Shown here: piece by piece, positions 13,793 to 29,805 of the stretch | Position numbering within the stretch: position 1 is the stretch's first letter | Layout of the letters: each line of letters starts with the position of its first letter | Assembly: GCF_000007185.1 (NCBI RefSeq) | Contig: NC_003551.1 | Span: 480,001-512,000 of the forward strand | Length of the DNA: 32,000 nt | Direction: 5' to 3' | Origin: Methanopyrus kandleri AV19 | Lineage (GTDB): Archaea > JAADCQ01 > Methanopyri > Methanopyrales > Methanopyraceae | Made by a program: the position numbers and the translations under genes | Notes under the pieces: generated by a model | Told to the model about the DNA's origin: nothing | The model's input: only the letters and a program-made list of their open reading frames with translations | Databases searched by the model: none

Positions 13793-15066
13793 CGTTGCGG
13801 GTGCTGCTCAAGGGCAAGATCCTGATCGGAGGGCGGGTACGAGAGCGCGAGGTGCTGGCCGAAGACGGTTGGATAGTCAAGATCGGCAAGAGACTGAACG
13901 AAGAGGCCGACCTCACGCTGGAATTGGGAAAAAGGGAGCTAGCGGTCCCGGCCCCGATCGACCTGCACGTGCATTGCCGGGATCCGCACCCGGATTACCC
14001 GTTTGGGTTCAAAACCGAAACAAGAAGGTTTCTTTTAGGAGGAGTCGCTACCGTAGTGGACATGCCGAACACGCGTCCGGCTCCCACTACACCTGAAACG
14101 TACTACGAAAAGGAGGAACTGGCGCGGGAGAACGCCGAGATCGAGGTCATCGTGGCCGGAGGCGTGAGGGATTCTCAGTGCACCAAGGAACTCGTCGAAG
14201 CCGGAGCGTACGTGCTCGGGGAAGTGTTCCTAGCGACGTCCACCGACGCGCCCGCGGTGCCGTGGAGCACGCTTCCGGAAATCTTCAGGGAACTATCCCC
14301 TGATGGTCCTCTAACGATATTCCATCCCGAGCTCGACGAACTGGTGGCCGAGAGGCCGGCCCGAAACCTCTACGAGCACCTAAAAAATAGGCCGCCGGAG
14401 GCTGAAACAACCGCCGTAGGGCTCCTGGCCGGGCTCAAGGTAAGATACCCAAGCCGTATCCATTTGTCTCACGTCACGCTGCCCGAGTCGGTGAAGATCG
14501 CCAAAGGAGCGGACATTACCGTGGACGTGACTCCCCACCACCTCTTCTTCGACGTGCTGCGAGTGGACCCGGAGGACCCTGTGTTTAAAGTGAACCCTCC
14601 ACTGCGAGGTCGTCATCACAGACTCGGACTCCTGCGCGCTGTGAGGAGAGGGGACGTGGACGTACTCGCCTCCGATCATGCCCCGCACATCCTCGAGGAC
14701 GAGTTCGAGGACGTCCCATCAGGAGTCACTGGAGGGGAGATCATCCTACCGGCGGCCCTCACGTTACACAGGCGATTCGGTTTGTCACTGAGGGACGCTG
14801 TGGCCATGATCACGTGCCGACCGGCGAAGCTCCTAGGCCGCGACGATCTAGGTGAGGTAGCGGTGGGGAAACGTGCCAGAATAACGGTCGTTCGAATGCG
14901 GGAGTTCGTCGTCCGGGCCGAGGAGTTCGGAGAGGAAGATCGGAAATTCCCCTACGACGGTATGCGGATGTTCGGAGAGCCCGTCAAGTTGATCGACGGG
15001 ACCAAGGTGTACGACCTCAAGGAATCTCGGCGGGAGGGGAAGCCGGTCATACTGGAGGGTGAGTGA
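13786..15066 (+). CDS. pyrC: Dihydroorotase
   Basis: 426 aa. Amidohydrolase signatures: PIDLHVHCRDP (HxH), VVDMPNTRP, HLSHV, TPHHLFF, KVNPPLR, LASDHAPH. The GTG start overlaps the upstream stop (GTGTTAG). Confidence 0.9.
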   Translation: MLALRVLLKGKILIGGRVREREVLAEDGWIVKIGKRLNEEADLTLELGKRELAVPAPIDLHVHCRDPHPDYPFGFKTETRRFLLGGVATVVDMPNTRPAPTTPETYYEKEELARENAEIEVIVAGGVRDSQCTKELVEAGAYVLGEVFLATSTDAPAVPWSTLPEIFRELSPDGPLTIFHPELDELVAERPARNLYEHLKNRPPEAETTAVGLLAGLKVRYPSRIHLSHVTLPESVKIAKGADITVDVTPHHLFFDVLRVDPEDPVFKVNPPLRGRHHRLGLLRAVRRGDVDVLASDHAPHILEDEFEDVPSGVTGGEIILPAALTLHRRFGLSLRDAVAMITCRPAKLLGRDDLGEVAVGKRARITVVRMREFVVRAEEFGEEDRKFPYDGMRMFGEPVKLIDGTKVYDLKESRREGKPVILEGE

Positions 15067-16756
15067 GTTGCCCACGGGTGCCAGGGTACTCGTCGAGTGC
15101 TTGAAAGAAGAGGGCGTCGAGCACATTTTCGGGTACCCGGGAGGTGCCGTCCTACCGATTTATGACGAGATCTACGACGAGGTTTCGATCGAACACATCC
15201 TCGTACGACACGAGCAGGGAGCTGCCCACGCCGCCGACGGGTACGCGAGGGTGAAAGGGAAACCCGGAGTCTGCATGGCGACATCGGGACCCGGAGCGAC
15301 GAACCTAGTCACGGGTATCGCCACGGCTTACATGGACTCGTCCCCGGTAATAGCCATCACCGGACAGGTCCCCACCACCATGATCGGGAAGGACGCGTTC
15401 CAGGAGGTCGACGCCGTCGGCGTGTTCATGCCCATCACTAAGCATAACTACCAGATAGGGAAACCCGAGGAGATACCGGAAGTCGTGAAGGAGGCGTTCA
15501 AGATAGCTATCACCGGTCGGCCGGGGCCTGTTCACATCGACGTGCCCAAAGACGTGCAGGAAGCGGAAGTGGATGTCGAGATACCCAAAACCGTCGAGGT
15601 CGAGGGCTTGAACGTGGTCAAGCGCGGTCATCCGGTACAGATCAAACGGGCCGCGGAGTTACTCGCCGAGGCGGAGCGACCCGTCATCTTAGCAGGCGGT
15701 GGGTGTGTAATCTCCAACGCTACTCGGGAGCTGATCGAGCTCGCGGAACTGCTCGGTGCTCCGGTAGCTACGACCCTCATGGGGAAGGGAGCGTTTCCCG
15801 AGGATCATCCACTAGCACTGGGTATGGCCGGTATGCACGGCACTAAGGCCGCGAACTACGCGCTGACGGAGTGCGACGTGCTACTCGCTGTAGGGTGCAG
15901 GTTCTCGGACAGGACTACGGGGGATCCCTCCGGATTCGCTCCCGAAGCGAAGATCATCCATATTGACATAGACCCCGCCGAGATCGGCAAGAACATCCCA
16001 GTCGACGTGCCCATAGTTGGTGATGCGAAGCTCGTCCTCAGGGACCTGATTAAGGAGTTGAAGCGGCGTAAGTACCTGAGGGAACGTAAGCGCTGGGGAG
16101 AGAGGATCGAGGAACTGAAGGCTGAAGTAGAGATGCCTCCGGAATCCACGGAGTCCGACCAACGGATCAGCCCGCGTGAGCTCGTACGTGTGTTACACGA
16201 AGCCCTGAAAGATCGGGATTACATTCTCACTACGGACGTAGGTCAGAACCAGATGTGGATGGCCCGATACTTCCCGGTGGAAGAACCGCGCAGGTTCATC
16301 TCCTCCGGTGGTTTAGGAACCATGGGATTCGGTCTTCCGGCCGCGCTCGGCGCTAAGGTAGCCGCACCGGAGAAAACCGTGGTCGCCGTGGTAGGAGACG
16401 GTGGGTTCTTGATGACCGCGCAAGAGTTAGCCACCGCCGTGGACAACGACATCGAGGTGAAGGTCTTCGTCATGGATAATAGACTCTTAGGGATGGTAGC
16501 GCAGTGGCAGAGGCTGTTCTACGACGAAAGATTGTCGGAATCGAAACTCGATGAGAAAACCGACATAGTGAAACTGACGGAGTCGTACGGAGCAGCCGGA
16601 ATTACCGTGGAGGAGCCGAGCGAGCTGGAGTCCGCGGTAGAGGAAGCCTTCGAGACTCCGGGTACGGTGGTGGTGGATGTGTTCGTAGATCCGGAAGAAA
16701 TCATCCCGATGGTGCCGCCGGGAGGCGAGTTGCGCGACATCCTTGGTGAAAAATGA
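15059..16756 (+). CDS. ilvB: Acetolactate synthase (acetohydroxyacid synthase) large subunit
   Basis: 565 aa. It starts GARVLVECLKEEGVEHIFGYPGGAVLPIYD and has the ThDP motif VVGDGGFLMTAQELATAV...VFVMDNRLLGMV. The GTG start overlaps the pyrC stop by 8 nt. Confidence 0.95.
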   Translation: MSELPTGARVLVECLKEEGVEHIFGYPGGAVLPIYDEIYDEVSIEHILVRHEQGAAHAADGYARVKGKPGVCMATSGPGATNLVTGIATAYMDSSPVIAITGQVPTTMIGKDAFQEVDAVGVFMPITKHNYQIGKPEEIPEVVKEAFKIAITGRPGPVHIDVPKDVQEAEVDVEIPKTVEVEGLNVVKRGHPVQIKRAAELLAEAERPVILAGGGCVISNATRELIELAELLGAPVATTLMGKGAFPEDHPLALGMAGMHGTKAANYALTECDVLLAVGCRFSDRTTGDPSGFAPEAKIIHIDIDPAEIGKNIPVDVPIVGDAKLVLRDLIKELKRRKYLRERKRWGERIEELKAEVEMPPESTESDQRISPRELVRVLHEALKDRDYILTTDVGQNQMWMARYFPVEEPRRFISSGGLGTMGFGLPAALGAKVAAPEKTVVAVVGDGGFLMTAQELATAVDNDIEVKVFVMDNRLLGMVAQWQRLFYDERLSESKLDEKTDIVKLTESYGAAGITVEEPSELESAVEEAFETPGTVVVDVFVDPEEIIPMVPPGGELRDILGEK

Positions 16757-17057
16757 GGCGGAAGTGAAAAAAGGATGGAGGGGGCCTACCCCTCGGCCCC
16801 GACCTCTACCACACGCGGCACCAACATCGCTGTGCACATTTCAGGCATTTCGAGAGTGGCCTGGTCGTCCTCCCAGCGTTCCAACTCCACTCGATCACTT
16901 CCGGATAGAGCGTGGAGGACGCGTCCGAAGTTCATCGGGGCCTCCCCTACTCGTTTTACCCCCAAATGTACGAGGTCGTTAAAATAGAAGGCGTGTCATG
17001 ACAAGGGTATGGAGTTCCTAAAGCGCGATCCGTGTTCACGAAATGGGCACAACATTG

Positions 17058-17073
17058 TTCGATCCACTTCGAA
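17058..17073. promoter_or_regulatory. TTCG-N8-CGAA inverted repeat (MsvR-type box as I recall it) abutting the rubrerythrin-like gene promoter
   Basis: The sequence TTCGATCCACTTCGAA sits directly 5' of the A/T-rich box at 17072-17085. Its role as a regulator site is inferred, not shown. Confidence 0.3.
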
Positions 17074-17085
17074 AAAGTTAAAAGG
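17072..17085 (+). promoter_or_regulatory. TATA-like box (AAAAAGTTAAAAGG) for the rubrerythrin-like gene
   Basis: An A/T-rich element 35-45 nt upstream of ATG 17119, in an otherwise GC-rich spacer. Confidence 0.35.
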
Positions 17086-17118
17086 TACGTAGCGAACGGT
17101 GATCAAGGGCGCTCGAAC

Positions 17119-17505
17119 ATGGACTTCGAGGAGTACCTCGAGAAGTGGTTCAAGGGCGAGACCACCGAGGTAGGCATCTACATGGCGATGGCCATCGTCG
17201 CTAGAGAGCAGGGCTACCCCGAAGTATGTGACCTGCTGGAGCAAATCGCTATGGACGAAGCCCGACACGCGGCCGCCGCGGCGCTGATCGCGGGGAAGGT
17301 CGAGAACAGTCTGGAGGGCCTGATCGAGAAGATGGAAGAAATGATTGAAGGTGAGAAAAACGCCTACGAAACCAGGATGGACGAAGCCGACCACCACTCC
17401 GACGAGCTGGACGACGAGATCATCACCCTGCTGAAGGCTACCGCATACGACGAAAAGCACCACAGGAAGATGCTCAAAGCGGCCCTCGAAAAGCTGAAGG
17501 AGTAA
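17119..17505 (+). CDS. Rubrerythrin-like ferritin-fold diiron protein (no rubredoxin domain)
   Basis: The ORF is open from 17032. ATG 17119 (MDFEEYLEKW) fits the promoter spacing. Four-helix diiron ligand pattern: ETTEVGIY, MDEARH (ExxH), EGEKNAYE (ExxE), YDEKHH (ExxH). There is no C-terminal CxxC...CxxC. Confidence 0.8.
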   Translation: MDFEEYLEKWFKGETTEVGIYMAMAIVAREQGYPEVCDLLEQIAMDEARHAAAAALIAGKVENSLEGLIEKMEEMIEGEKNAYETRMDEADHHSDELDDEIITLLKATAYDEKHHRKMLKAALEKLKE

Positions 17506-17571
17506 CTTCCAAGCGCCCCCTTCGACGCCCTCGCTCAATCGTCATGACATCCGAAACGATGGGGTGGGCCT

Positions 17572-18342
17572 TTGAGGTACGTCGACGCACATGTGCACCT
17601 CGACGTTAGGAGTTACGAAGACCTCGAGAGAATGGCCTTATCTGGAGTCCGAACCGTCGTCACGTGCGCTCACGATCCTTACCCCGACATGACGGCCGAG
17701 GTGTACTCCGCCCTCTTCAGAAGGCTCCTCGGGGTGGAAACGTGGAGGGGCGAAAAGGCCGGGCTCACGGTTAAGGTGGCCGTGGGAGTACATCCCGGAG
17801 GCGTACCGGATAACATGAGCGACGTGCTACGGGAAGTCGAGGAACTCCTGAGTCATGAGGACGTCGTCGCGATCGGAGAGACCGGCCTCAACGAAAATCC
17901 GGATGATAGAGAAATCCAAGTCCTGGAGGCTCAGCTGAAGTTAGCCCGAGAGCACGAGGTACCCATCATTGTCCACACGCCGAGCAGGAACAAGGTCGAG
18001 ATCACCGAGAAGGTGTTGGAGATCCTGAACTCTTCGGGTATAGACCCCTCTCTGGTGCTGGTGGACCACGCCTCGGCGGAGACCGTCTCGCTCATCGGTG
18101 AGGAAGGGTACGCGGTCGGGCTGACACTCCGACCGGGAGAGCTCGATGTGTGGGAAGCGTGTGATATCGTGGAGGAGTACGCCGACGAAATGACGCTCAT
18201 CGCGAGCAGCGACCTGGGATCTCTAGCCGCCGATCCACTCGCCCTCCCCAAGCTGGCCCTCGAACTGGAACGCCGGAACGTCGAGAAGAGCATCATCCGG
18301 GACGTCGTAGCCCGGAACGCTGAGAGGTTTTACGGGCTCTAA
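17572..18342 (+). CDS. TatD-related TIM-barrel metal-dependent hydrolase (archaeal COG1099 type)
   Basis: 256 aa, TTG start. It has VDAHVHLD (HxH), AIGETGLN, PIIVHTP and a VDH segment, typical of the TatD/amidohydrolase fold. Confidence 0.8.
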   Translation: MRYVDAHVHLDVRSYEDLERMALSGVRTVVTCAHDPYPDMTAEVYSALFRRLLGVETWRGEKAGLTVKVAVGVHPGGVPDNMSDVLREVEELLSHEDVVAIGETGLNENPDDREIQVLEAQLKLAREHEVPIIVHTPSRNKVEITEKVLEILNSSGIDPSLVLVDHASAETVSLIGEEGYAVGLTLRPGELDVWEACDIVEEYADEMTLIASSDLGSLAADPLALPKLALELERRNVEKSIIRDVVARNAERFYGL

Positions 18343-18532
18343 CTTCCGCCCTAAAGCACGATGTTCGAGGCAGCCTCGGTCCCCGTCCTCTATTCGTGGA
18401 TCATGTAGGCGGGTGATCAGGCCGGTCAGAGCGACCCCATCTTGAAGACGAGTCCTACAGCGATTCCCAAGGATCGCTTCCTCATCGCGAGATCACTCGA
18501 GACCTGAGGACAAACCCTCATTCTCCCCGCCC

Positions 18533-19327
18533 TTGAGAACCAACGTTTACCCAAGGGGCTGTGAGGATCGATTGCGCTTCGCCGCACTCTACTCCCACCA
18601 GTTCGGTAAGAGGATGGTAGCCAACCTACTGAACGAACCCGGTCACTGCAGGGCTTGCGGGCCTGTATGCGACGGGTGCAAGTACGACATGTATTCGCTC
18701 GTCGACTCCCTCGTCGCCGTTGAGGAGCTACCCAAACCCGAAGAGTTACCTCCGTTCGTCGACGAGCCCGAGGATCACCTCCCCGAACTACCGCCCGTCG
18801 ATGTGCTGGTGGCGATCGGATTGCATCCCGACCTCCTAGTAGCGCTGTCCGAAGTATACGAGATTAAGGCACTGATAGTGCCCGTCGAGGAACCCGACTG
18901 GATCGACCCGTGGATCGAAGAGAAACTACGAGAGGTATGCGAAGAGAACAGCGTAGAGCTCACTGTGGCGAGGCCAGGATGCGACCTGGAACCGTCGGGT
19001 CCCGTAACCGAAGCGTTCTGCGACGCGGGCATGATCGGGAGGCCTAAGCTGTTCATGAAGGTCGAGGACGGCGTCGTGATCGACGTCCATGTAGTACGAT
19101 CGGCGCCGTGCGGTTGCACGTGGTTCGTGGCTAAACGACTGGTCGGTGTGGACGCTGATCCCGAAGAGGTGAAGGCTACAGTTTCCGAGGCACATCACTC
19201 GTACCCCTGCACGGCTTCGATGGAGGTCGACAAGCACGTGGGGGATACCCTGCTCCACGTAGCGGGCCGGTTGCACATCGAGGCGGCCCTCCGAGCGCTC
19301 GAGGAAGCGACGGATACCGACGCCTGA
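18533..19327 (+). CDS. Conserved archaeal Cys-rich protein, DUF166/COG1810-like
   Basis: LYSHQFGKRMVANLLN, CRACG..CDGC, SAPCGCTWFVAKRL, AHHSYPCTASM and DTLLHVAG match the DUF166 pattern I remember (family assignment from memory). The start is uncertain among TTG 18533, TTG 18572 and ATG 18614. Confidence 0.6.
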   Translation: MRTNVYPRGCEDRLRFAALYSHQFGKRMVANLLNEPGHCRACGPVCDGCKYDMYSLVDSLVAVEELPKPEELPPFVDEPEDHLPELPPVDVLVAIGLHPDLLVALSEVYEIKALIVPVEEPDWIDPWIEEKLREVCEENSVELTVARPGCDLEPSGPVTEAFCDAGMIGRPKLFMKVEDGVVIDVHVVRSAPCGCTWFVAKRLVGVDADPEEVKATVSEAHHSYPCTASMEVDKHVGDTLLHVAGRLHIEAALRALEEATDTDA

Positions 19328-19335
19328 CGGGTATC

Positions 19336-19704
19336 TCACGCCCCGCCCAGTACTCGCTCCAAAACTTCCCGGAACAGTCTCCACTTATCCCCGTGCAGAC
19401 TGTACTCCCTGCGCACGTCGTCCTCGATGTCCTCAGCCCTGTAACCGACGGGATAGTACGTCGAGACGAGCTCCCCGTTTCGGCGCTCCGGTCTCAGCTC
19501 GATTTCACCCCGACGGAGCAGGTCGAAGATCGCTTCCTTCACGTCGACGGAGAAGTAGGGTGCCTTGAGCAACATGCAGTGACCGTATTCCGTTCCCGTC
19601 AATGGTCTTCCGGTCTCACGTTCGAAAGCTTTGTCGAGCAAATACACCGCACGGAACAAGGAGCGCTTATCTACGCCCGGTCGGAACGCGACGATGTACT
19701 TCAT
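19336..19704 (-). CDS. Hypothetical protein, divergent from the CODH cluster (weak SocA/Panacea-like resemblance)
   Basis: The ORF is open to 19764; ATG 19704 (MKYIVAFRPG...) is more natural. LFRAVYLLDKAFERETGRPLTGTEYGHCMLLKAPYFSVDVKEAIFDLLRRGEI loosely resembles the KL.YL.d.....G.plt...y.....GPy pattern. The function call is speculative. Confidence 0.5.
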   Translation of the reverse strand: MKYIVAFRPGVDKRSLFRAVYLLDKAFERETGRPLTGTEYGHCMLLKAPYFSVDVKEAIFDLLRRGEIELRPERRNGELVSTYYPVGYRAEDIEDDVRREYSLHGDKWRLFREVLERVLGGA

Positions 19705-19825
19705 CAGCGGCCGCAAGTTAGCGCCCGTCGGTTTGACCGTGTGACACCTGCACCGGGCGTGCAACCTGGGTCCCCCTTGTATCAGTATGTTCGAAAGTGT
19801 CCAAACGTTTGATGAAAATCGAAAC

Positions 19826-19900: not shown

Positions 19901-21817
19901 GTGGAGGAAAAGAGATCCTCGTGCCCGTACGCCGATGAAGCCGTGTGTGAGCTAGTCGAGCACGCGAAGGAGCTGAATGAGGAGATTCCGGAGATAGAGA
20001 CCCCGCACATCCGATGGCCCGTTCAGTTCCCGAAGTGCCCGTACGGCAAGCAAGGCGTCTGGTGTAACATCTGCTCGAACGGCCCGTGCCGAATTACGGA
20101 GAAGACACCACGCGGTGTCTGCGGAGCGACGGCGGACGTGATCGTGGCACGCAACTTCTTGCGTCACGTCGCCGCCGGAGCCGCGTGCTACGTGCACTGC
20201 CTGGAGAACGCCGCCCGGGCCCTCAAGTCCGTGGCGGACGAGGAATCTCCTTACGAGATCGCAGACGAGAAGGCGCTGAGGCACGCTGCCGAAGTATACG
20301 GTCTAGATACCTCCGGTAAACCGGAAGATGTGGCCGAGGAGATCGCAGAGTTCATTCTCGAGGATATCTACAGGCCCAGATATGAGGAGTCCGAGGTGTT
20401 CAAGGCTGTTGTACCCGATTGGCGCATCGAGATGTACGAGGAAATGGGCCTAATTCCGGGCGGAGCTAAGTCGGAGATACACGACGCCCTTGTCAAGACG
20501 AGTACGAACCTCAACTCAGACCCCGTTGACATGCTCCTCCACGTGCTGCGACTGGGACTGATCACCGGCCCTGTCGCGCTCTTCGGTGTGGAGACGATCA
20601 ACGATATCCTCTTCGGCAGCCCGAAGATCACGCAAACGGAGGGTGGTCCCGGAATACTGGACCCGGACTACGTCAACATCATGACGACCGGCCACCAGAT
20701 GGCTCTCATGAAGTACCTGACGGACGCCGCCGAGAAGCTGGAAGAAGAGGCCAAGGCGGCGGGAGCTAAAGGTATCCGGATCATCGGTGCGACGTGCGTC
20801 GGCGACGATTTCGAGGCGCGCGCCGAGCACCTACCAGACACGTACGCGGGCTTCGCGGGTAACAATTTCGCGACGGAGGCGCTCGCAGCAACGGGTCTCG
20901 TGGACGCGATCGTGAGCGAGTTCAACTGCACGTTCCCGGGTCTGAAGTTCTACAAGGAGAAGCTGGACGTCGAGCTGGTCGCCGTCGACGACGTGGCCAA
21001 GGTGTGGGGCGCGGAGCTGATCCTCTGGGACCCGGAGCGTGCCGAGGAGGTCGCGGAGGAGGCCGTCCAGAGGGCCATTGAGGCGTTCAAGGAGCGCCGG
21101 TCGAAGCACGAGGACAAGATCATGGAGCCGAAGCACAGGCACGAGAACGTGGTGGGGTTCGGATACTTCTCGATCGAGGAGGCCGTCGGCTGGGAGAACG
21201 TGCTCAAGCTGATCGAAGAAGGCACCATCCGCGGCGTGTGCGCCATCATGGGCTGCACGAATCTCTCCAGCGGCGGCCACAACGTGCCGGCGGTCGAGCT
21301 CGCCAAGGAGATGATCAAGCGCGACGTGCTCGTGCTCGGCGCCGGCTGTGTGAACGGGGCGTTCGCCAACGCTGGACTGTTCAACCCTGAAGCAGCCGAG
21401 CTGGCCGGTGACAACCTCCGACAGGTGTGCGAGGAGTTAGGTATTCCACCGGTGCTGCATTACGGCCCATGTCTGGCGATCGGTAAGATCGAGCATCTCG
21501 TCTTCGAGATCGCCGAGATACTTCGAGAGAAAACCGGCGAGGAAATCGACATCCCGGACGTACCCGCCGTCGCGAGCGCGCCGCAGTGGCTCGAGGAGCA
21601 AGCCCTAGCGGACGCGTCCTCGGCCTTAGCTCTAGGTATCACGCTGCACGTGAGTCCCGTACCGCCGGTGACCGGTAGCGAGCTGGTTACGAAGACGCTG
21701 CTGGAGGACCTACCGGATCTCACCGGCGGCGAGCTGATCGTGGAGACGGACATGAAGCGTGCCGGAGAGATTCTCGCCGAGAAGATCGAGGAGAAGCGGA
21801 AACGGCTTGGTATCTAA
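19901..21817 (+). CDS. cooS: Ni-dependent carbon monoxide dehydrogenase catalytic subunit homolog (CooS type, divergent)
   Basis: 638 aa, colinear over its full length with C. hydrogenoformans CODH-II as I recall it. B-cluster motif: WCNICSNGPCR...GVCGAT. C-cluster ligand equivalents: TGHQ (His261), GATCVG (Cys295), FNCTFP (Cys333), MGCTN (Cys446), GAGCVNG (Cys476), YGPCLA (Cys526). GTG start with a GGGGATCC SD. Confidence 0.9.
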   Translation: MEEKRSSCPYADEAVCELVEHAKELNEEIPEIETPHIRWPVQFPKCPYGKQGVWCNICSNGPCRITEKTPRGVCGATADVIVARNFLRHVAAGAACYVHCLENAARALKSVADEESPYEIADEKALRHAAEVYGLDTSGKPEDVAEEIAEFILEDIYRPRYEESEVFKAVVPDWRIEMYEEMGLIPGGAKSEIHDALVKTSTNLNSDPVDMLLHVLRLGLITGPVALFGVETINDILFGSPKITQTEGGPGILDPDYVNIMTTGHQMALMKYLTDAAEKLEEEAKAAGAKGIRIIGATCVGDDFEARAEHLPDTYAGFAGNNFATEALAATGLVDAIVSEFNCTFPGLKFYKEKLDVELVAVDDVAKVWGAELILWDPERAEEVAEEAVQRAIEAFKERRSKHEDKIMEPKHRHENVVGFGYFSIEEAVGWENVLKLIEEGTIRGVCAIMGCTNLSSGGHNVPAVELAKEMIKRDVLVLGAGCVNGAFANAGLFNPEAAELAGDNLRQVCEELGIPPVLHYGPCLAIGKIEHLVFEIAEILREKTGEEIDIPDVPAVASAPQWLEEQALADASSALALGITLHVSPVPPVTGSELVTKTLLEDLPDLTGGELIVETDMKRAGEILAEKIEEKRKRLGI

Positions 21818-21849
21818 TTCTCACCCCCACTTCCGGGATGGTGGTGACC

Positions 21850-22950
21850 ATGGAGATCGAGGCGATCCGTGTAGCAACGGGAGCTCCTGGCGAACTGTAT
21901 ATGGTAGCCGAGATCGCGGAGGACAAGGTCGTGAACGCCGAAGTGTGCTCGGGCACGACACCGATCTCCTGGGAGACGCTCGTCCTCGAGAAGCCCGTGG
22001 AGTTCGCCGTAGTGGCCGCCGAACGAGTATGCGCCAGCTGTGACGCGAGCCTAGGGCTCGCCGTGGTCGAGGCGGCCGAGGCAGCTCTCAACGTCGAGAT
22101 CCCGGACGAGGCGGAGCGAGCGCGCGAGATCCTGAACATGGCTAACGTCGTCAGGGCGCACGCCACCGTGCTGGCGAGGACTGACTTCCTCGACGTGAAG
22201 AAGCCCGCGTACGACCTAGTGAGAGCTGCGAAGGACATCATGCACGCCGTCGGAGGGAAGCCCGACCACCCACCGGCCGTGACCGTAGGCGGTTTGGACC
22301 TCGAAAAGCTGCCCGTAGACAGGGTTGAATCCGTAGCTAAGGACGCCGCCGAGGTGGCAGACAGGCTTGAGGACGAGGTCGGATCCGCGGTAGATCGGAT
22401 GAAGGAAGATATCGACGTGGAACCGGAGGAGATGCCGGCGGGACTGAAGGTTTCGGACACGTACAAGGGCGACATAGACCCAGACAAGGTCGAGACGCTA
22501 ATGCCGGATGAATTCTACCGTATGAAGACCACCCTGGAGATAGCGAACAACGTCGTCGCCAGGTATGACGGGGAGCCCGTCCTCGTCGGTCCTTACGCCC
22601 GAGTAAGGAGCGCGGAAAACCCGCTGGACCTCTACACCGCCAGGGCCGAGGAAGTAGCGAGGATGCTCGACGGTATCGCAAACGCCGTATCCAGGCTAGA
22701 TCCGACCGGGAACTTCCGAACGGACGTCGAGCTCGGCTCGGGCGAGGGTACGGCGGCTGTGGAGGCACCGGAGGGTACCCTGATCGTCTCGCTGAGACTA
22801 CGGGCCGGGCGCGTGGACAAGGCCCTGATGTTAACTCCATGCAACTTCAAGGTTGCGGCGATCGGGGAGATGGTGCGCGACCTGACGGTTGACAGGGCTG
22901 AGACAGTTCTACGCGCGATCGGCCTCTCCGGTAGATGTCTTACCCACTAG
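21850..22950 (+). CDS. [NiFe]-hydrogenase large-subunit homolog (FrhA-like, group 3), active-site motifs degenerate
   Basis: ATG 21850 (MEIEAIRV) is preceded by GGTGGTGA; ATG 21838 is also in frame. It is colinear with FrhA: ERVCASCDAS corresponds to RxCGxCxxxH, EAPEGTLIVSL to EAPRGxLxH, and the C-terminus RAIGLSGRCLTH-stop to RAYDPCLSCATH. Confidence 0.8.
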   Translation: MEIEAIRVATGAPGELYMVAEIAEDKVVNAEVCSGTTPISWETLVLEKPVEFAVVAAERVCASCDASLGLAVVEAAEAALNVEIPDEAERAREILNMANVVRAHATVLARTDFLDVKKPAYDLVRAAKDIMHAVGGKPDHPPAVTVGGLDLEKLPVDRVESVAKDAAEVADRLEDEVGSAVDRMKEDIDVEPEEMPAGLKVSDTYKGDIDPDKVETLMPDEFYRMKTTLEIANNVVARYDGEPVLVGPYARVRSAENPLDLYTARAEEVARMLDGIANAVSRLDPTGNFRTDVELGSGEGTAAVEAPEGTLIVSLRLRAGRVDKALMLTPCNFKVAAIGEMVRDLTVDRAETVLRAIGLSGRCLTH

Positions 22951-22963
22951 GGGGAAGCCCAAG

Positions 22964-23680
22964 ATGAAGGTGGCTGTGCTGTCCCTTATGGCTTGTGGTA
23001 CATGCGCCAGGAACCTGGAGGAGGTTTGCCACGAAGAGGGTCATGAGGTGGTCTGGTCGAACCTAGAAGGCGACGAGGGAGAACCGGACGCCGACATTCT
23101 GTTCGTAGAAGGCGCGGTGGACTTCGCCGACGCCGAGACCCTGGAAAAGTTAGAGGAGGCCGCTTCGGCCGTCAGTACCGTGGTATCACTGGGTTCCTGT
23201 GCCGCTACCGGGGGTTTCGAGCGACACGTCATAGGCATGCGCGACCCCGACCGGTACCACTTCACGGTCTTCCCAGCTGCCAAGTTCGTCGAAACGGACT
23301 ATGCGATCAACGGCTGTCCACCTACTACGGACGTGATCGCGTCCTTCCTCAGAGCTCTAGAGGAGGAGAACGAGGACGAACTCCGACCGTACGAAGTCTT
23401 GTCCGGGGATTTCCACGGGCTCACGCCGGAACTGTCCGCTCCGGTGACCGGTCCGACGGTACCGGTCGAGGACGTACTCCTGACGTCGAACAAGGACCTG
23501 TGCCTGGGCTGCGACCTGGACGTGATTGAGAAGGACCTCTTCTGCGTCGGCTGCGGAACGTGTGCCGCCTCCTGCCCGGCGTGGGCTATCGAGATGGACG
23601 AGAAGCCCGTAATCCGGCAAGAGAGGTGCGTTCGATGCGGAACTTGCTTCGTAAGCTGCCCGAGATCGTTCAGGATATGA
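22964..23680 (+). CDS. Hydrogenase small-subunit homolog (FrhG-like) with C-terminal 2x[4Fe-4S] ferredoxin domain
   Basis: ATG 22964 (MKVAVLSLMACGTCARN). Proximal-cluster pattern: CGTC, LGSCAATGG, INGCPP. Then CVGCGTCAASCP and CVRCGTCFVSCP. The ORF-track start at 22889 overlaps the upstream gene and is unlikely. Confidence 0.85.
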   Translation: MKVAVLSLMACGTCARNLEEVCHEEGHEVVWSNLEGDEGEPDADILFVEGAVDFADAETLEKLEEAASAVSTVVSLGSCAATGGFERHVIGMRDPDRYHFTVFPAAKFVETDYAINGCPPTTDVIASFLRALEEENEDELRPYEVLSGDFHGLTPELSAPVTGPTVPVEDVLLTSNKDLCLGCDLDVIEKDLFCVGCGTCAASCPAWAIEMDEKPVIRQERCVRCGTCFVSCPRSFRI

Positions 23681-23699: not shown

Positions 23700-24623
23700 G
23701 TGTTGCGCAAGCTGATCCGAAGAATAGCAGGGGGCAAAGAGGAAGAGAATACCCGTGAGGGATCTCCCGAGAACGATCTCCCGGACCCCGAGGTCGTGGG
23801 TGAGTACCGCGAGGTTTACCTGACCCGCGCAACCGACGAACGTATCCGCGAGCACGGACAGGACGGAGGTACTACTACGGCGCTACTCGCCCACGCACTG
23901 GAGGAGGACACGGTGGAAGCCGTGATTGCCTCGTCGACAGTCGAGACATGGAAGCCCGAACCCGTAATAGTCACCGATCCCGACGAACTGATCGAGACCG
24001 CGGGATCGAAGTACGCGATTTCTCCGAACGTGAGTGCCCTCAACGAGGCCATAGCCTCCTACGACTCAGTCGCCCTCGTGGGCACGCCGTGTCAGATCAC
24101 CGCCGTAAAGAAGTCTAAAATGTACCCTTACGGCCTGGCTAACGTGACGGAGCGTGTGAAGCTAACCGTCGGCATCTTCTGCACCGAGAACTTCCAGTAC
24201 GAGAGCCTACTGAAGCTGCTCGAAGACATGGGTGTCGACGTCGAGAACGTCGAGCGTATGGACATCAGCCACGGTGAATTCATCGTACGCACTAAGAACG
24301 GTGATGTGCACTCGGTATCGGTTTCCAAGCTAGGCGATTACGCCAACGAGGCGTGTAACTACTGCACGGACTTCACGGCCGAGGACGCCGACATCAGCGT
24401 GGGATCCGTCGGCGCGCCGGATGGCTGGAACGTGGTTCTGGTCCGGACGAAAGAAGGCGAGAAGGTGTTCCGGTCCGCCGTAGACGCTGACGTCCTGGAA
24501 GTCAAAGATATCGGGGAAGGGGACCCGAACCTGCTCGAGCGCCTGGCCAGGGACAAGAAGGAACGCATTCACACCTCCATGTGTGCCACTTGGAGACCTT
24601 ATCACCCTACCGTTCCTCTCTAA
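23700..24623 (+). CDS. FrhB/FdhB-family F420-interacting FAD/FeS subunit homolog
   Basis: 307 aa. GQDGGTTTALLAHALEE, GSKYAISP, VALVGTPCQITAVKK, GIFCTENF and CNYCTDFTAEDADISVGSVG match FrhB N- and C-domain signatures. GTG 23700 gives a charged extension of about 30 aa; GTG 23796 is an alternative start. Confidence 0.85.
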   Translation: MLRKLIRRIAGGKEEENTREGSPENDLPDPEVVGEYREVYLTRATDERIREHGQDGGTTTALLAHALEEDTVEAVIASSTVETWKPEPVIVTDPDELIETAGSKYAISPNVSALNEAIASYDSVALVGTPCQITAVKKSKMYPYGLANVTERVKLTVGIFCTENFQYESLLKLLEDMGVDVENVERMDISHGEFIVRTKNGDVHSVSVSKLGDYANEACNYCTDFTAEDADISVGSVGAPDGWNVVLVRTKEGEKVFRSAVDADVLEVKDIGEGDPNLLERLARDKKERIHTSMCATWRPYHPTVPL

Positions 24624-24664
24624 CGTCATTTCACTATTTCTCCGAGTTCAAGGGGCCCAGAGCT

Positions 24665-25129
24665 GTGATCAAGCCACGAGATTTCCTGAGGTATTTCCTC
24701 TACTCTTACATCGTAACTTCCGCACAGCTGCTGGGAGATAAGGCCCCTACTCTACGGCGGATGGTATGCAAAAACGTGGTAAAGGCGTTGCTACGCGAGC
24801 ATCCGGAGCTGAAAGATGCCGAACCGGTGGAGCTTGTCAAAGATGTGGCGGAGAGCTTCCTAGGGGCCGACGTCAGGATAGAAGAGAAGTCAACGGAAAC
24901 CGTCGTACACGTGAGAGGGTGCAAGATCTGCCCACGCGATCTGATCGAAGAGTTTACAGGTGAGAACCCCGACCTGGAGGGTCCCGTCTTCAGCTACAAC
25001 GTGTGCGCGTTTGTGACCATGGTTGAGGAGATTCTGCACGCTCTGGGCCACATAGATTCCGACATCAAGCATGACCCAATCAAACGCGGGCGCTGCCGCG
25101 TAATCGTCAGGCCTAAGGGCACGGACTGA
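24665..25129 (+). CDS. Small stand-alone V4R-like domain protein
   Basis: The ORF is open from 24581; GTG 24665 or ATG 24761 are plausible starts. LLGDKAPTLRRMVCKNVVKAL...VVHVRGCKICPRD...NVCAFVTMVEEIL...RGRCRVIVRP resembles the V4R pattern (helical N-part, then C-x2-C ... C ... C in beta strands). Assigned by eye. Confidence 0.55.
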   Translation: MIKPRDFLRYFLYSYIVTSAQLLGDKAPTLRRMVCKNVVKALLREHPELKDAEPVELVKDVAESFLGADVRIEEKSTETVVHVRGCKICPRDLIEEFTGENPDLEGPVFSYNVCAFVTMVEEILHALGHIDSDIKHDPIKRGRCRVIVRPKGTD

Positions 25130-25931: not shown

Positions 25932-26097
25932 CATAAGTGATCCGAGAGGACGGAACGACTCGCGACGTATTGGAGGCGATTTTTTGTTAACCTAACGATG
26001 ACGAGCTCGGGGTTCGGTTCGGGCAGACAAAGTACGGTCGGTGGGGGGTCCGAGCTGGTACGGCCCGGCAGTCAGAACCTTCGAGGGGACCCGAGCT

Positions 26098-26835
26098 ATG
26101 AAACTGGTGATCGACGTACCGAAGGAGATCGCTAAGGCCTTGGACAGCAAAACACGACGTGAAATCCTGAAACTGCTGGAAGAACGCGGCTCGATGACGA
26201 TATCGGACATCGCCAGGGAGCTGAACCTGTCCAAATCAACTGTCCATCACCATTTACAGGAACTCCGAAAGGCCGGTCTCGTGGACGTCATCAAAGAGGA
26301 TCGCGAAACTCCCCTCCCGAAGCGCTACTACGGGCTCGTGAGAAGACTCGTCCGAGTATCGAAGCCGAAGCTTGAAGATGCCTCCGAGTATGTCATAAAA
26401 GCCCTAGAACGTGGGGAGGACCTGAGAACATCGATGTTCCTAGCGATCGCGGCAGCGTATCGCGCGGTGTTGGAGTCCCTGGGTATCGACGCCTCGGAGG
26501 TCCTGTACGAGCTCGGAAAGGAGATCGGTAAGCGACTCGCGGAACTAGGATCCGAAGAGACCGTGCTGCGGAAGGGCTTGGAGATCATAGCCGAGTCAGT
26601 AGAATTCCGTCAGGAGAACGACCGTGTGGTGGTCGAGATTGAAGGATGCCACGAGTGTTCCGACCTACCCTACGGTCCCGCATGTCATTTGGAGGCGGGA
26701 ATCATAGCCGGTGTTCTGTCGAACCTGAGGGAACGACCTTACGAAGTCCGGGAGGTGGAGTGCTGCGGGGAAGGCGCTGATAGATGCGTGTTCGTGGCGG
26801 AACCAGCTACTGACGAAGAACGCCCCAAGTCCTAG
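26098..26835 (+). CDS. msvR: ArsR-type wHTH + C-terminal V4R domain transcription regulator (MsvR family-like)
   Basis: ATG 26098 (MKLVIDVPKEIAKALDSKTRREILKLLEERGSMTISDIARELNLSKSTVHHHLQELRKAGLV) is an ArsR HTH. The C-terminus VVEIEGCHECSDLPYGPACHLEAGIIAGVL...VECCGEGADRCVFVAEP is a V4R domain. The ORF is open from GTG 26041. Confidence 0.8.
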   Translation: MKLVIDVPKEIAKALDSKTRREILKLLEERGSMTISDIARELNLSKSTVHHHLQELRKAGLVDVIKEDRETPLPKRYYGLVRRLVRVSKPKLEDASEYVIKALERGEDLRTSMFLAIAAAYRAVLESLGIDASEVLYELGKEIGKRLAELGSEETVLRKGLEIIAESVEFRQENDRVVVEIEGCHECSDLPYGPACHLEAGIIAGVLSNLRERPYEVREVECCGEGADRCVFVAEPATDEERPKS

Positions 26836-27148
26836 TGACTTTAGACACTCCTTCTACCCAGGCGACCAAGGCTAACGTGGCGGCTATCTCTTCGTCGGTC
26901 ACTTCGGCGACGTTCTTCGCCGTCTCGGCTATGAGGCCTACTCTACGCTCGTCTCCGGCAGCCGCCGCCAAAGCGAGGGCGATGAGATGCTTCGTCTTGT
27001 CGTCCAACGGAGACTCCTTCCATATTATTCTATGCAGCTCCTCAACGACCTCCGCGTACTCATCTCCCAACATCTCTTCGGCATACTTCACAGCTATCAG
27101 ACCTTTTTCGTCCTCCTCCTTGGCCGGTTCACCGGGCTTCCGGGACAA
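26807..27148 (-). CDS. Carboxymuconolactone decarboxylase / AhpD-like family protein
   Basis: 113 aa, TTG start. SPLDDKTKHLIALALAAAAG...VTDEEIAATLALVAWVEG is the CMD-domain pattern. There is no CxxC. It overlaps the convergent MsvR-like gene by 29 nt. Confidence 0.75.
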   Translation of the reverse strand: MSRKPGEPAKEEDEKGLIAVKYAEEMLGDEYAEVVEELHRIIWKESPLDDKTKHLIALALAAAAGDERRVGLIAETAKNVAEVTDEEIAATLALVAWVEGVSKVTRTWGVLRQ

Positions 27149-29271: not shown

Positions 29272-29805
29272 TCACGTCTCCCTCTCCATCGCCACAATAC
29301 CCGTCCTAGCGATTTCGACGATGTTACCGATATCCTTCATCAACTCAAGGAGGGATTCGACATCCTGCGGCTCTCCCACGATCTCTACGGTGATAGTCTC
29401 CCGGCCCACATCGACCACCTCGGCGCCCGCGGCCCGAGCCAACTCGGCCGCCCTCGCACGGTCCTTCGTCCTGATCTTGACCAGCGCTAACTGCCGCTCC
29501 ACAGTGCGTTCTGGGTCCAGCTCCGAGACCTTGATAACGTCGACGAGCTTGTTGAGCTGCTTGACTACTTGCTCGATCGTTTGCTCGTTTCCTTTTACTG
29601 TAAGCGTCATCCTGGCCAACCCTTCCCGCTCTGAGGGTCCTTCGGCGATAGAGTCGATATTGAACCCACGTCTCCTGAAAAGTCCCGACACACGTTGCAT
29701 GACACCGGGCCGATCCTTTACGAGCACCGAGAGTACGCGACGCTTGGACAACTCACATCCCCCCTTAACTAGCAGGCGCGTGCTTATTTCACGGACAGCC
29801 CCCAC
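29272..29805 (-). CDS. ilvN: Acetolactate synthase small (regulatory) subunit
   Basis: ACT domain RVLSVLVKDRPGVMQRVSGLFRRRGFNIDSI plus the C-terminal ACT-like domain. The likely true start is TTG 29751 (LSKRRVLSVLV), and the ORF-track ATG 29805 adds 18 atypical residues. Confidence 0.9.
   Translation of the reverse strand: MGAVREISTRLLVKGGCELSKRRVLSVLVKDRPGVMQRVSGLFRRRGFNIDSIAEGPSEREGLARMTLTVKGNEQTIEQVVKQLNKLVDVIKVSELDPERTVERQLALVKIRTKDRARAAELARAAGAEVVDVGRETITVEIVGEPQDVESLLELMKDIGNIVEIARTGIVAMERET

Follow-up and report, generated by a model that had tools for sequence, protein, structure and literature searches.

A clade C Ni-carbon monoxide dehydrogenase homolog of Methanopyrus kandleri and its probable partnership with a module derived from an F420-reducing hydrogenase

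A carbon monoxide dehydrogenase (CODH) homolog of Methanopyrus kandleri AV19 probably works, to judge from sequence comparison, with an F420-binding module that comes from a hydrogenase and has lost its own catalytic site. The gene lies in a stretch of 32,000 nucleotides, referred to here as the window, which was analysed as a whole. The best explanation, which we hold tentatively and at somewhat less than an even chance for the whole of it, is that the gene encodes a functional member of clade C (group C-3) of the Ni-CODH family and that its product belongs to a CODH-type complex which is coupled to F420 and has a part in oxidative stress, with CO oxidation as the favoured direction. The CODH gene and the residues under discussion are located as follows.

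19901..21817, + strand: CooS-type Ni-CODH homolog, clade C, structural group C-3 (638 aa, GTG start)
19922..19948, + strand: N-terminal Cys8 (19922-19924) and Cys16 (19946-19948)
20036..20062, + strand: D-cluster region, Cys46 kept at the site of Cys39 and Trp54 (TGG, 20060-20062) at the site of Cys47
20063..20122, + strand: B-cluster ligands Cys55, Cys58, Cys63 and Cys74, invariant in 85/85 relatives
20186..20218, + strand: helix Cys96-Tyr97-x-His99, Tyr97 (TAC, 20189-20191) at the site of the acid-base residue His93; C96, Y97 and H99 invariant in 85/85 relatives
20693..21472, + strand: codons of the C-cluster ligands His265 (20693), Cys299 (20795), Cys343 (20927), Cys452 (21254), Cys483 (21347) and Cys524 (21470)
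21584..21601, + strand: Q-W-L-E-E-Q motif, Gln567 (CAA, 21599-21601) at the site of Lys563; invariant in clade C

The 638-residue product is a full-length CooS-type CODH (Pfam Prismane, 2e-152) and scored 731 bits in NCBIfam TIGR01702, for which the cutoff is 478. Its top PDB matches were 6t7j (4e-115), 7b7q and 6elq, and Foldseek comparison of its AF2 model (pLDDT 90.7) with solved CODHs gave TM-scores of 0.90-0.93. BLASTP against CODH-II, using a reference sequence identical to chain 1SU6_A over 636/636 residues, showed 32% identity (E = 6e-94). In a neighbor-joining tree clade C was recovered with a bootstrap of 300/300 and its archaeal subgroup with 292/300; identity to the Methanocaldococcus homologs was 55-57%.

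The BLASTP alignment matched C55, C58, C63 and C74 to the B-cluster ligands Cys48, 51, 56 and 70 of CODH-II, and H265, C299, C343, C452, C483 and C524 to the C-cluster ligands His261 and Cys295, 333, 446, 476 and 526, as the initial annotation of this DNA had proposed from alignment by eye. All six C-cluster ligands are invariant among the clade C relatives (85/85). In fold, full-length homology and both of these ligand sets the protein agrees with the canonical CODHs of clades E/F; missing from it are the D-cluster with two Cys per subunit, whether spaced C-x7-C or C-x2-C, as well as His93, Lys563 and the histidine channel of those enzymes. The initial annotation had also read Trp, Tyr and Gln at the positions of Cys47, His93 and Lys563. 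The more rigorous comparison bears this out: W54 was aligned with Cys47 by BLASTP, phmmer and MAFFT, and Y97 and Q567 stood at the acid-base sites in all alignments. The register was checked with BLASTP, with phmmer alignments to 6t7j, 6elq and 7b7q and with a 69-sequence MAFFT alignment, and their agreement rules out a shift that would restore His, Lys or Cys. A sequencing error at Trp54 was ruled out by the presence of the TGG codon in all seven Methanopyri loci (7/7).

Tyr and Gln in place of His and Lys are found in all 85 clade C relatives (85/85) and are thus clade-wide, as the initial annotation had wondered for all three substitutions; the Trp is restricted to Methanopyri. Tyr/Gln at the acid-base sites defines clade C of the Ni-CODHs (Inoue 2019), and a lone D-cluster Cys is the defining mark of its archaeal group C-3, with WP_010870233 of Methanocaldococcus as representative and only Methanocaldococcus and Methanotorris named as members (Inoue 2019). 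The M. kandleri gene had been placed in a deep branch of clade C (Techtmann 2012). The window CODH shares the ligand pattern of group C-3 (one His and five Cys, the full C-cluster), Tyr/Gln, the single Cys in the D-cluster region, the archaeal host and the deep branching, and differs from the Methanocaldococcus members in having Trp, instead of Tyr, at the place of the lost Cys. By these comparisons the Methanopyrus gene is a clade C, group C-3 relative of CODH and its deviating residues are genuine.

An extra pair of Cys residues near the N-terminus, also remarked on before, holds for one of its two members: Cys8 is kept in 83/85 clade C sequences, whereas Cys16 occurs in only 24/85 and is Arg or Lys in other Methanopyrus sequences. 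The N-terminal Cys corresponds to the N-terminal Cys motif of clade C-1 (Inoue 2019). The AF2 pLDDT for residues 1-10 is only 51.

At position 49 of the window CODH, where the alternative D-cluster Cys of a C-x2-C spacing would stand, there is Gly. Only Methanopyri and Methanocaldococcus/Methanotorris, the latter with Tyr (TAC) at its site, lack the second D-cluster Cys, which is retained in bacterial clade C members and, as TGT, in the archaeal relative L004, which is without Frh-like neighbours. The lineages lacking it are exactly those in which FrhA-, FrhG- and FrhB-like genes follow the CODH gene. A single step leads from TGY to TGG or to TAC, and two steps separate these codons from one another; the second Cys has apparently been lost twice, and only alongside Frh-like partners. 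This comparison supports the different electron exit route that the initial annotation had suggested. The partner genes are listed below.

21838..22950, + strand: FrhA-like protein, 370 aa, ending at His370; [NiFe]-hydrogenase large-subunit fold
22964..23680, + strand: FrhG-like small subunit, 238 aa from ATG; Pfam Oxidored_q6 and Fer4 domains
23700..24623, + strand: FrhB-like F420/FAD/[4Fe-4S] subunit, 307 aa; Pfam FrhB_FdhB_N 1e-26 and FrhB_FdhB_C 1e-48

The gaps between the four genes measure 13-20 bp, purine-rich sequences resembling ribosome binding sites precede three of the four starts, and the gene order CODH-FrhA-FrhG-FrhB-like is common to two archaeal (methanogen) orders. The three downstream proteins are homologous to the subunits of FrhABG (3zfs/4omf/4ci0) and follow its order, A-G-B, with the difference that a CODH gene heads the operon. 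The FrhB-like protein matched 3zfs_C (2e-66) and passes the NCBIfam subfamily PRK09325 (356 against 269), staying below the frhB equivalog cutoff (271 against 331.5). The FrhG-like protein matched 3zfs_B (1e-28) and scored 130 bits in TIGR03294 (cutoff 245.5); it carries the Cys motifs for three [4Fe-4S] clusters, with 14 Cys invariant between Methanopyri and Methanocaldococcus. The [4Fe-4S] motifs of the Frh small subunit and the F420/FAD/[4Fe-4S] domains of FrhB are therefore in place.

The large subunit is the one that departs from Frh. In phmmer alignments of the FrhA-like protein with 4ci0_A/3zfs_A (3e-20), RVCASC was matched to RICGVC and LSGRCLTH to DPCLSCATH, so that the Ni/Fe ligand positions are taken by C65, C68, S364 and C367, an incomplete set where Frh has the four Cys of RxCGxC...DPCxxC. 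The Methanococcales homologs, which were found by profile search, read RLC[Y/C]LN ... QLCERC, so that three of the four Ni/Fe Cys are kept in either group, a different three in Methanopyri and in Methanococcales; R63, C65 and C367 are invariant among the homologs. A contig scan with the FrhA-like alignment matched only four Methanopyri MAGs, its peptide patterns being Methanopyrus-specific. With 120 bits the protein fails TIGR03295 (frhA; cutoff 392.5), lying, as the FrhG-like protein does, far under the equivalog cutoff; the AF2 model (pLDDT 72) gave TM-scores of 0.73-0.79 to FrhA. In the alignment the 386-residue chain 4ci0_A ends level with His370, and the 405-residue chain 3zfs_A runs 19 residues further. 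The protein has no cleavable C-terminal extension, and no ORF for an frhD protease was found between 21838 and 24623. A genuine Frh hydrogenase was rejected on the incomplete ligands, the score below the frhA cutoff and the missing C-terminal extension; as far as its motifs tell, a standard [NiFe] hydrogenase is ruled out for the FrhA-like partner.

The three retained Cys could still bind metal, and the module might then be a working hydrogenase, with Ni/Fe held by three Cys and another ligand and with CO oxidation coupled to H2 or F420. The count of three Cys in each lineage, the invariant R63, C65 and C367 and the retained large-subunit fold agree with such an enzyme. However, the two orders do not lack the same Cys, and this speaks against an alternative site conserved in both; losses in one lineage or the other have also removed the His from the N-terminal motif and the Asp-Pro from the C-terminal one, and both the low frhA score and the fastest evolution in the operon belong to this protein. 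Of the readings considered here we give this one the least credence.

An ordinary ferredoxin-linked CODH, followed by Frh-like genes that represent an unrelated or loosely related hydrogenase paralog, is very improbable. It would agree with the passing of the NCBIfam CODH equivalog and with published descriptions, since these archaeal CODH genes were called 'unlinked' (Techtmann 2012) and a 2026 marine survey (PMC13240472) read the neighbouring genes as "F420-reducing hydrogenase". But the tight spacing and the order shared by two methanogen orders weigh against it, the D-cluster, through which electrons usually leave to ferredoxin/CooF, is incomplete in precisely these lineages, and the FrhA-like protein lacks the full Ni/Fe ligands, the frhA score, the frhD protease gene and the C-terminal extension of a hydrogenase.

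Across the Methanopyri loci the identity was 89-93% for CODH, 72-82% for the FrhG-like, 60-69% for the FrhB-like and 56-66% for the FrhA-like protein; against Methanocaldococcus the values were 55%, 34%, 33% and 25%. Within the operon, conservation is highest for CODH and lowest for the FrhA-like protein, a ranking that marks CODH as the constrained catalytic part and the FrhA-like subunit as the most relaxed. The same values weigh against a non-catalytic protein, be it a sensor (of redox state, CO or metal) or the relic of a CODH in decay. The loss of second-sphere catalytic residues, the HTH-V4R regulators nearby and the auxiliary or regulatory roles proposed for clades C and D (Bohm and Land) would suit a protein of this kind, but CODH is the best conserved product at the locus (neighbours 56-82%), all ten Fe-S/Ni ligands are invariant, and the clade-invariant C96, Y97, H99, E565, E566 and Q567 speak for an active site under selection and not for drift. 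A pseudo-enzyme or decaying gene was rejected on this conservation, and the non-catalytic reading as a whole is highly improbable.

In the F420-coupled complex that we prefer, CODH would be the catalytic subunit of a four-gene unit made of CODH and the FrhA-, FrhG- and FrhB-like proteins. The Frh-like part would have descended from an F420-reducing hydrogenase and, as the complete Ni/Fe site is lost, would no longer activate H2; the FrhA-like subunit would act as scaffold, the FrhG-like subunit as a chain of three [4Fe-4S] clusters and the FrhB-like subunit as the [4Fe-4S]/FAD/F420 site. Electrons would pass directly between the C-cluster/B-cluster of CODH and the Frh-like chain, so that the dimer-bridging D-cluster would become dispensable and free to lose its second Cys. 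As for direction, slow CO oxidation (E0' ~ -520 mV) with reduction of F420 (~ -340 mV) would be the most likely, and the F420H2 produced would supply the neighbouring O2/ROS-detoxifying enzymes. In favour of this proposal, which includes a predicted Ni content, we count the invariant ligands, the tight conserved operon, the conservation ranking of its products, the FrhA-like fold with its incomplete Ni/Fe Cys, the invariant Cys of the FrhG-like and the FrhB match of the FrhB-like protein, the loss of the D-cluster Cys only alongside Frh-like partners, the CO:ferredoxin activity of a clade C enzyme from Thermoanaerobacter kivui, a NikR-like neighbour of the Methanocaldococcus operon and the O2/ROS context.

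Several findings were counted against it. On the BLASTP alignment the loss extends past His93: the channel residues His96, His99 and His102 of CODH-II align with C100, N103 and R106, these positions are never His within clade C, and the histidine proton channel of CODH-II is gone as well. Since neither the acid-base pair His/Lys nor any His of the channel is left, CO turnover, if any, should be slow. CooS-CooF1 of T. kivui (Jain et al. 2021, PMC8683389), the sole clade C enzyme isolated, does oxidise CO slowly, falling short of the activity of AcsAB 15-fold with ferredoxin and 231-fold with methyl viologen, and is essential for growth on CO (PMC8683389). It shares clade C with the window CODH, and Tyr/Gln by the clade-wide statement of Inoue 2019, but is bacterial, has a CooF partner and comes from those groups of clade C in which the D-cluster is retained. 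[quoted passage not shown] Because the T. kivui enzyme oxidises CO from within the Tyr/Gln clade, the loss of His/Lys lowers the expected CO rate and proves no other substrate. The altered chemistry put forward by the initial annotation is accordingly kept as an expectation of slower CO turnover, and a different substrate is not implied.

A further point against CO comes from Glu565, two residues before Gln567, which lies at the site of the hybrid-cluster Glu of hybrid cluster proteins (HCP): WLEEQ aligned with WYEQK in an hhalign comparison with a Methanocaldococcus HCP, and by this alignment E565 is in the HCP-type state. A Glu two residues ahead of the Lys has been described (Inoue 2019). 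Tyr97 and Glu565 together are states of HCP and point away from CO. They are also those of CODH-V (clade D, Jeoung et al. 2022), which has no CO activity and a [4Fe-3S-nO]-type hybrid-like cluster. CODH-V (7b7q) has the same fold as the window CODH (phmmer 2.5e-109, TM 0.92-0.93), lacks His at the His93 site (Inoue lists Tyr for D-1; the phmmer register there is uncertain) and carries a Glu two positions ahead of the Lys site; unlike the window CODH, it has Glu for the first C-cluster Cys, keeps the Lys and has a C-x2-C D-cluster.

The same F420-linked complex might therefore run in reverse, F420H2 being oxidised at the FrhB-like subunit and the CODH-like subunit reducing hydroxylamine, NO, H2O2 or O2 by HCP/CODH-V-like chemistry at a modified cluster, rather than oxidising CO. 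Besides the two residues and the CODH-V precedent on the same scaffold, the absence of the proton relay for CO/CO2 chemistry, the lack of a nearby CooC gene and the detoxification genes for O2, ROS and RNS around these operons would fit. We find this unlikely on the whole, while leaving it a sizeable share of belief: the six C-cluster ligands are strictly kept, including Cys299, where HCP and CODH-V have Glu; the Lys that both of them keep is Gln here; TIGR01703 (hydroxylamine reductase) gave 22.9 bits against a cutoff of 360.8; a clade C enzyme, that of T. kivui, does oxidise CO; and the NikR-like regulator beside the Methanocaldococcus operon fits a Ni enzyme. Membership in HCP/hydroxylamine reductase itself was rejected on Cys299, on Gln for Lys and on the TIGR01703 score, although Tyr97 and Glu565 do match.

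A bolder idea, which we likewise hold to be doubtful, is that the protein stands for a functional class so far not recognised within the CODH/HCP superfamily. It would be a CODH-scaffold dimer on a decayed F420-reducing hydrogenase chassis, F420(H2)-dependent and physiologically not a CO dehydrogenase, which either reduces an O- or N-derived stress compound or has a non-canonical bridging cluster rebuilt by Cys8; such an enzyme would add a third chemistry to those of CO/CO2 and of hydroxylamine/NO.

Earlier work has already catalogued the substitutions, the incomplete D-cluster and the Frh-type neighbours, and the novelty implied by the initial annotation has to be given up: beyond Inoue 2019, Techtmann 2012 and the 2026 survey, the bare sequence observation contributes nothing. 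Literature searches for the locus tags MJ0725-0728 and MK0717/0718 found nothing relevant, and those for His93, Lys563 and the clade jointly found nothing. Added here are the lost His channel, the HCP-type E565, the conservation of Cys8 only, the D-cluster loss that tracks the Frh-like partners, the ligand decay of the FrhA-like protein and the conservation ranking of the operon. In clade C, which is among the large clades of Ni-CODHs, both acid-base residues are replaced and every metal ligand is kept. The archaeal C-3 operon predicts for it a defined redox partner, F420 through the Frh-derived module, and a structural consequence, that the D-cluster is not needed; the C-3 hosts include Methanocaldococcus, where genetics exist. 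If the proposal is true, a hydrogenase electron-transfer chassis has been re-used by another catalytic subunit, and CODH-family enzymes are tied to F420-dependent oxygen defence in hyperthermophilic methanogens.

The genes surrounding the operon are the following.

17032..19327, + strand: rubrerythrin (17032-17505), TatD-like protein (17572-18342) and DUF166 protein (18533-19327), identified by Pfam, upstream of CODH
24746..25129, + strand: conserved small ORF downstream of the FrhB-like gene, with a core of ~127 aa within ORF 24581-25129
26041..26835, + strand: HTH (ArsR/MarR-type) + V4R transcription regulator; Pfam V4R 1.4e-20, HTH_5 5e-18
26807..27148, - strand: CMD (AhpD-like) family protein; Pfam CMD 3.6e-12

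Rubrerythrin, TatD-like and DUF166 genes stand in identical order in the Methanopyri loci, and TatD and DUF166 adjoin the Methanocaldococcus operon too. The neighbours of the latter include superoxide reductase (SOR), rubredoxins, ferritin, peroxiredoxin, rubrerythrin, an FprA-type flavoprotein and HCP, the HCP gene lying ~3 kb downstream, and a NikR-like regulator follows the operon; a gene for cytochrome bd subunit I is found near CODH in L004. Such neighbouring genes, here rubrerythrin and CMD, fit a role in O2/ROS metabolism. CODH-IV of C. hydrogenoformans is reportedly linked with rubrerythrin. In that system and in the bacterial clade C CooS-CooF-FNOR clusters a CODH-family gene likewise stands beside peroxide-/O2-detoxifying genes, and a ROS-mitigation hypothesis is cited for CooF/FNOR clusters (PMC13240472). 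CODH-IV has the canonical His/Lys and D-cluster (alignment to 6elq), unlike the window CODH, and the carrier proposed here would be F420 via the Frh-derived module, not NAD(P) or ferredoxin.

A tRNA scan of the window was empty. A regulator of the HTH-V4R type also adjoins CODH in L004, L005 and L007, and a CMD family protein is encoded in L007 and L001. The small ORF at 24746..25129 had no Pfam or NCBIfam match; it is 54-60% conserved and occupies the same position in six Methanopyri loci.

The gene at 19901-21817 heads a unit of four, spaced by 13-20 bp, in which purine-rich sequences resembling ribosome-binding sites precede three of the four start codons:

19901-21817, + strand: full-length CooS-type CO dehydrogenase (CODH) homolog, 638 aa, GTG start (Pfam, NCBIfam and PDB matches, AlphaFold2 model)
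21838-22950: FrhA homolog, [NiFe]-hydrogenase large subunit (3e-20 to 4ci0/3zfs)
22964-23680: FrhG homolog, small subunit (1e-28)
23700-24623: FrhB homolog, F420/FAD subunit (2e-66)

The first product matched Pfam Prismane/CODH (2e-152) and NCBIfam TIGR01702, "anaerobic carbon-monoxide dehydrogenase catalytic subunit" (731 bits; cutoff 478). Its closest solved structures in phmmer were Thermococcus CODH (6t7j, 4e-115), C. hydrogenoformans CODH-V (7b7q, 2.5e-109) and CODH-IV (6elq, 4e-107), and its AlphaFold2 model, built from 85 homologs (mean pLDDT 90.7), gave TM-scores of 0.90-0.93 against solved CODHs. Other Methanopyrus CODH sequences were 89-93% identical to it; the FrhA-like protein was 100% identical to an M. 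kandleri entry. The nr entry for the M. kandleri CODH (P0003) differs from the window protein in two internal stretches only, at about residues 347-363 and 402-437 (window 20930-21230), which are Arg/Gly-rich (e.g. GRRAGRRRRRGQGVGRG) and look as if compensating frameshifts had entered that record; all other Methanopyrus homologs agree with the window version in both.

The initial annotation, aligned by eye to CODH-II of C. hydrogenoformans, had assigned a full set of B- and C-cluster ligands and the loss of Cys47, His93 and Lys563; all of its residue assignments proved correct. In BLASTP against CODH-II (32% identity, E = 6e-94; reference identical to PDB chain 1SU6_A across 636/636 residues), the B-cluster Cys48, 51, 56 and 70 correspond to C55, C58, C63 and C74, and the C-cluster His261 and Cys295, 333, 446, 476 and 526 to H265, C299, C343, C452, C483 and C524. 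The D-cluster Cys39 is kept as C46 and Cys47 is replaced by W54; the acid-base residues His93 and Lys563 are replaced by Y97 and Q567. The register was identical in phmmer alignments to 6t7j, 6elq and 7b7q and in a 69-sequence MAFFT alignment, and neither these nor BLASTP offered an alternative in which His, Lys or Cys reappears. Gly occupies position 49, the site of the second Cys in "C-x2-C" D-clusters; with W54, both known D-cluster motifs are therefore absent. The loss of proton-handling residues extends beyond His93: His96, His99 and His102 of the same CODH-II helix align with C100, N103 and R106, and His never occurs at these positions within the clade. As for the extra N-terminal Cys pair that had been pointed out, Cys8 is conserved (83/85 relatives); Cys16 occurs in only 24/85 and is Arg or Lys in other Methanopyrus sequences. 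The pair's counterpart is the variable Cys motif known from the N-terminus of bacterial clade C-1 enzymes (Inoue et al. 2019). A replacement D-cluster ligand might in principle come from Cys8; the first ten residues of the AlphaFold2 model are of low confidence.

Across 85 homologs (47-91% identity), Y97, Q567, the entire Q-W-L-E-E-Q motif, C96, H99 and the ten cluster ligands outside the D-cluster pair were invariant. A wider search of about 15 billion proteins, clustered at 50% identity and represented by one sequence per cluster, restricted the Tyr+Gln combination to the query's clade (at least 46% identity); in the MAFFT alignment, the remaining clades carry His/Lys, Asn/Lys or Tyr/Lys. 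Neighbour-joining with 300 bootstrap replicates recovered the clade in 300/300, its archaeal subgroup (Methanopyrus, Methanocaldococcus and P0018, an archaeal clade C CODH) in 292/300 and the bacterial remainder in 300/300. Tyr and Gln are thus clade-wide, and Trp is confined to the Methanopyri: all Methanopyri have Trp at the second D-cluster position, the Methanocaldococcus and Methanotorris relatives have Tyr, and everything else, P0018 included, has Cys, so that loss of this Cys is not clade-wide.

Group C-3, to which this CODH belongs, has been reported from Methanocaldococcus and Methanotorris as archaeal and deep-branching (Inoue et al. 2019), and M. kandleri and Methanocaldococcus were placed on the deepest clade C branch, with CODH genes termed "unlinked" (Techtmann et al. 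2012; PMC3328121). The substitution finding is a correct rediscovery of published features, and its novelty is therefore low. The group has no characterised member, and its mechanism is absent from these and related published accounts. What remains of interest is the function of clade C, still unexplained, together with the operon-level interpretation proposed here, which is not stated in the literature searched.

Only lineages that have the Frh-like module lack the second D-cluster Cys, a coincidence that supports the different electron exit route suggested initially. The codon at this position is TGG in Methanopyri and TAC in Methanocaldococcus, each a single change away from TGY and two changes from the other; it is TGT, with Cys kept, at the P0018 locus (L004), which has no Frh-like genes. 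A grouping of Methanopyrus with Methanocaldococcus that excluded P0018 appeared in only 29/300 replicates. Given these codon distances and the lack of such a grouping, two independent single-step losses appear the simplest history. The D-cluster seems to be dispensable where an Frh-type Fe-S chain is the partner.

Seven Methanopyri metagenome loci and Methanocaldococcus share this four-gene order, which makes it improbable that the CODH is an ordinary ferredoxin-linked enzyme and its neighbours unrelated, even with the "unlinked" designation. Constraint within the unit is highest for the CODH and lowest for the FrhA-like protein.

Identity of window proteins to their homologs (Methanopyri loci; Methanocaldococcus)
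CODH: 89-93%; 55%
FrhG-like: 72-82%; 34%
FrhB-like: 60-69%; 33%
FrhA-like: 56-66%; 25%

This ranking fits a catalytic CODH on an electron-transfer module whose large subunit would now be a scaffold; with the CODH so constrained, a sensor or relic is a shade less probable again than the ferredoxin-linked enzyme. The Ni-Fe site of the FrhA-like protein has decayed. FrhA proper has R-I-C-G-V-C ... D-P-C-L-S-C-A-T-H, whereas the window protein has R-V-C-A-S-C ... L-S-G-R-C-L-T-H, with Ser364 at the third Ni ligand position; five Methanococcales homologs have R-L-C-[Y/C]-L-N ... Q-L-C-E-R-C-Y-Y-L and lost the second ligand. The C-terminal His is aligned with the last residue of the 386-residue 4ci0_A, the 405-residue 3zfs_A running 19 further; neither a C-terminal extension (alignment to 4ci0/3zfs) nor an frhD gene (operon ORFs) is present. 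The AlphaFold2 model resembles FrhA (TM 0.73-0.79), but the protein fails the NCBIfam frhA equivalog (120 bits; cutoff 392.5). The FrhG-like protein also fails its equivalog (130; cutoff 245.5) and has 14 Cys invariant across both orders, enough for three [4Fe-4S] clusters. The FrhB-like protein is well conserved and passed only a subfamily model; with the start codon as predicted, a Lys/Glu/Arg-rich extension of about 30 residues (23700-23795) precedes its alignment from FrhB residue 2. A genuine Frh hydrogenase as the CODH partner was rejected on the incomplete Cys set, the missing extension and frhD, and the failed frhA cutoff. Each order keeps three of the four Ni/Fe Cys, a different three, and a three-Cys hydrogenase that is still active is the least probable reading.

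The active site of the CODH is a mosaic of CODH and hybrid cluster protein (HCP)/CODH-V features. HCP and CODH-V have Glu in place of one C-cluster Cys, whereas the window protein keeps the complete CODH ligand set, that Cys included, for a presumably Ni-containing cluster; it shares with them a Tyr where CODH-II has His93 and a Glu (Glu565) two residues ahead of the Lys site. Gln in place of Lys is unique to this type of site and is not an HCP/CODH-V trait. In CODH-II, His93 and Lys563 directly contact non-protein ligands on Ni and Fe1 (PMC6005268). The sole isolated clade C enzyme, T. kivui CooS-CooF1, is required for growth on CO, although its CO oxidation is 15-fold (ferredoxin) and 231-fold (methyl viologen) slower than that of AcsAB. 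As a caution, Bohm and Land note that its source was a CO-adapted strain and that it is not typical of clade C. Tyr/Gln is thus compatible with slow CO oxidation and is no proof of a different substrate. The initial observation was confirmed and its interpretation supported in part only.

Our preferred reading, tentatively held, is an F420-coupled complex in which a CODH dimer, an FrhA-like scaffold, an FrhG-like Fe-S wire and an FrhB-like F420 site would act together. Its most likely activity would be CO oxidation with F420 reduction, F420H2 passing to neighbouring O2/ROS defence enzymes. Judged by standard potentials, CO oxidation coupled to F420 reduction is exergonic (about -520 mV versus about -340 mV). 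The main rival, rather unlikely but well ahead of the others, runs the same complex in reverse, F420H2 being oxidised and an N- or O-oxide reduced at a modified cluster; the HCP-like features would suit it, and the retained CODH ligand set would suit CO oxidation. Residues, synteny, FrhA-like site decay and the ranking by conservation are observed; assembly into a complex, use of F420, the presence of Ni and the substrate are inferred.

The conserved gene neighbourhood is suggestive of oxygen stress. Its members in the window are rubrerythrin, a TatD-like protein, DUF166, an HTH-V4R regulator and a CMD (AhpD-like) protein. The Methanocaldococcus operon lies in an island with desulfoferrodoxin, rubredoxins, ferritin, peroxiredoxin, rubrerythrin, an FprA-type flavo-diiron protein and flavoproteins, followed by a NikR-like regulator, HCP, TatD and DUF166. 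At the P0018 locus, with its D-cluster intact, the CODH gene is preceded by an HTH-V4R regulator and followed by cytochrome bd oxidase subunit I (L004 5949-6551; Pfam 1.1e-39) in place of Frh-like genes; this is another O2-related setting for clade C.

At the Methanocaldococcus locus (L001 12475-14712), the NikR-like regulator (RHH_1 and NikR_C nickel-binding domain) precedes HCP; CODH- and HCP-family genes about 3 kb apart are possibly under Ni control. The HTH-V4R gene of the window (26041-26835, +) overlaps the convergent CMD gene (26807-27148, -) by 29 bp. V4R-type regulators lie divergently upstream of clade C CODHs on L004 (3322-3954), an unrelated archaeal contig, and at two further CODH loci (L005, L007), and may be dedicated regulators of archaeal clade C CODHs. 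The TatD-DUF166 pair adjoins the operon on opposite sides in Methanopyri (window 17572-19327) and Methanocaldococcus (L001 15511-17117), its linkage conserved; the DUF166 protein weakly matches the DfsP selenoprotein family (58.6 bits; cutoff 200), and a second TatD paralog lies at 29881-30690.

Directly 3' of the FrhB-like gene, a small ORF (24581-25129, +; core 24746-25129) with a C-x2-C motif and no Pfam or NCBIfam match recurs in the corresponding place in six Methanopyri loci (54-60% conserved); the Methanocaldococcus locus lacks it. Its product may act as a fifth component or as a sensor. Between the DUF166 and CODH genes, a 142-aa ORF (19336-19764, -), without a match in the family search, is 69-79% conserved in four Methanopyri loci. 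The acetolactate synthase large (15059-16756, +; TPP enzyme domains) and small (29272-29805, -; ACT/ALS_ss_C) subunit genes are on opposite strands, separated by about 12.5 kb, and flank the CODH locus.
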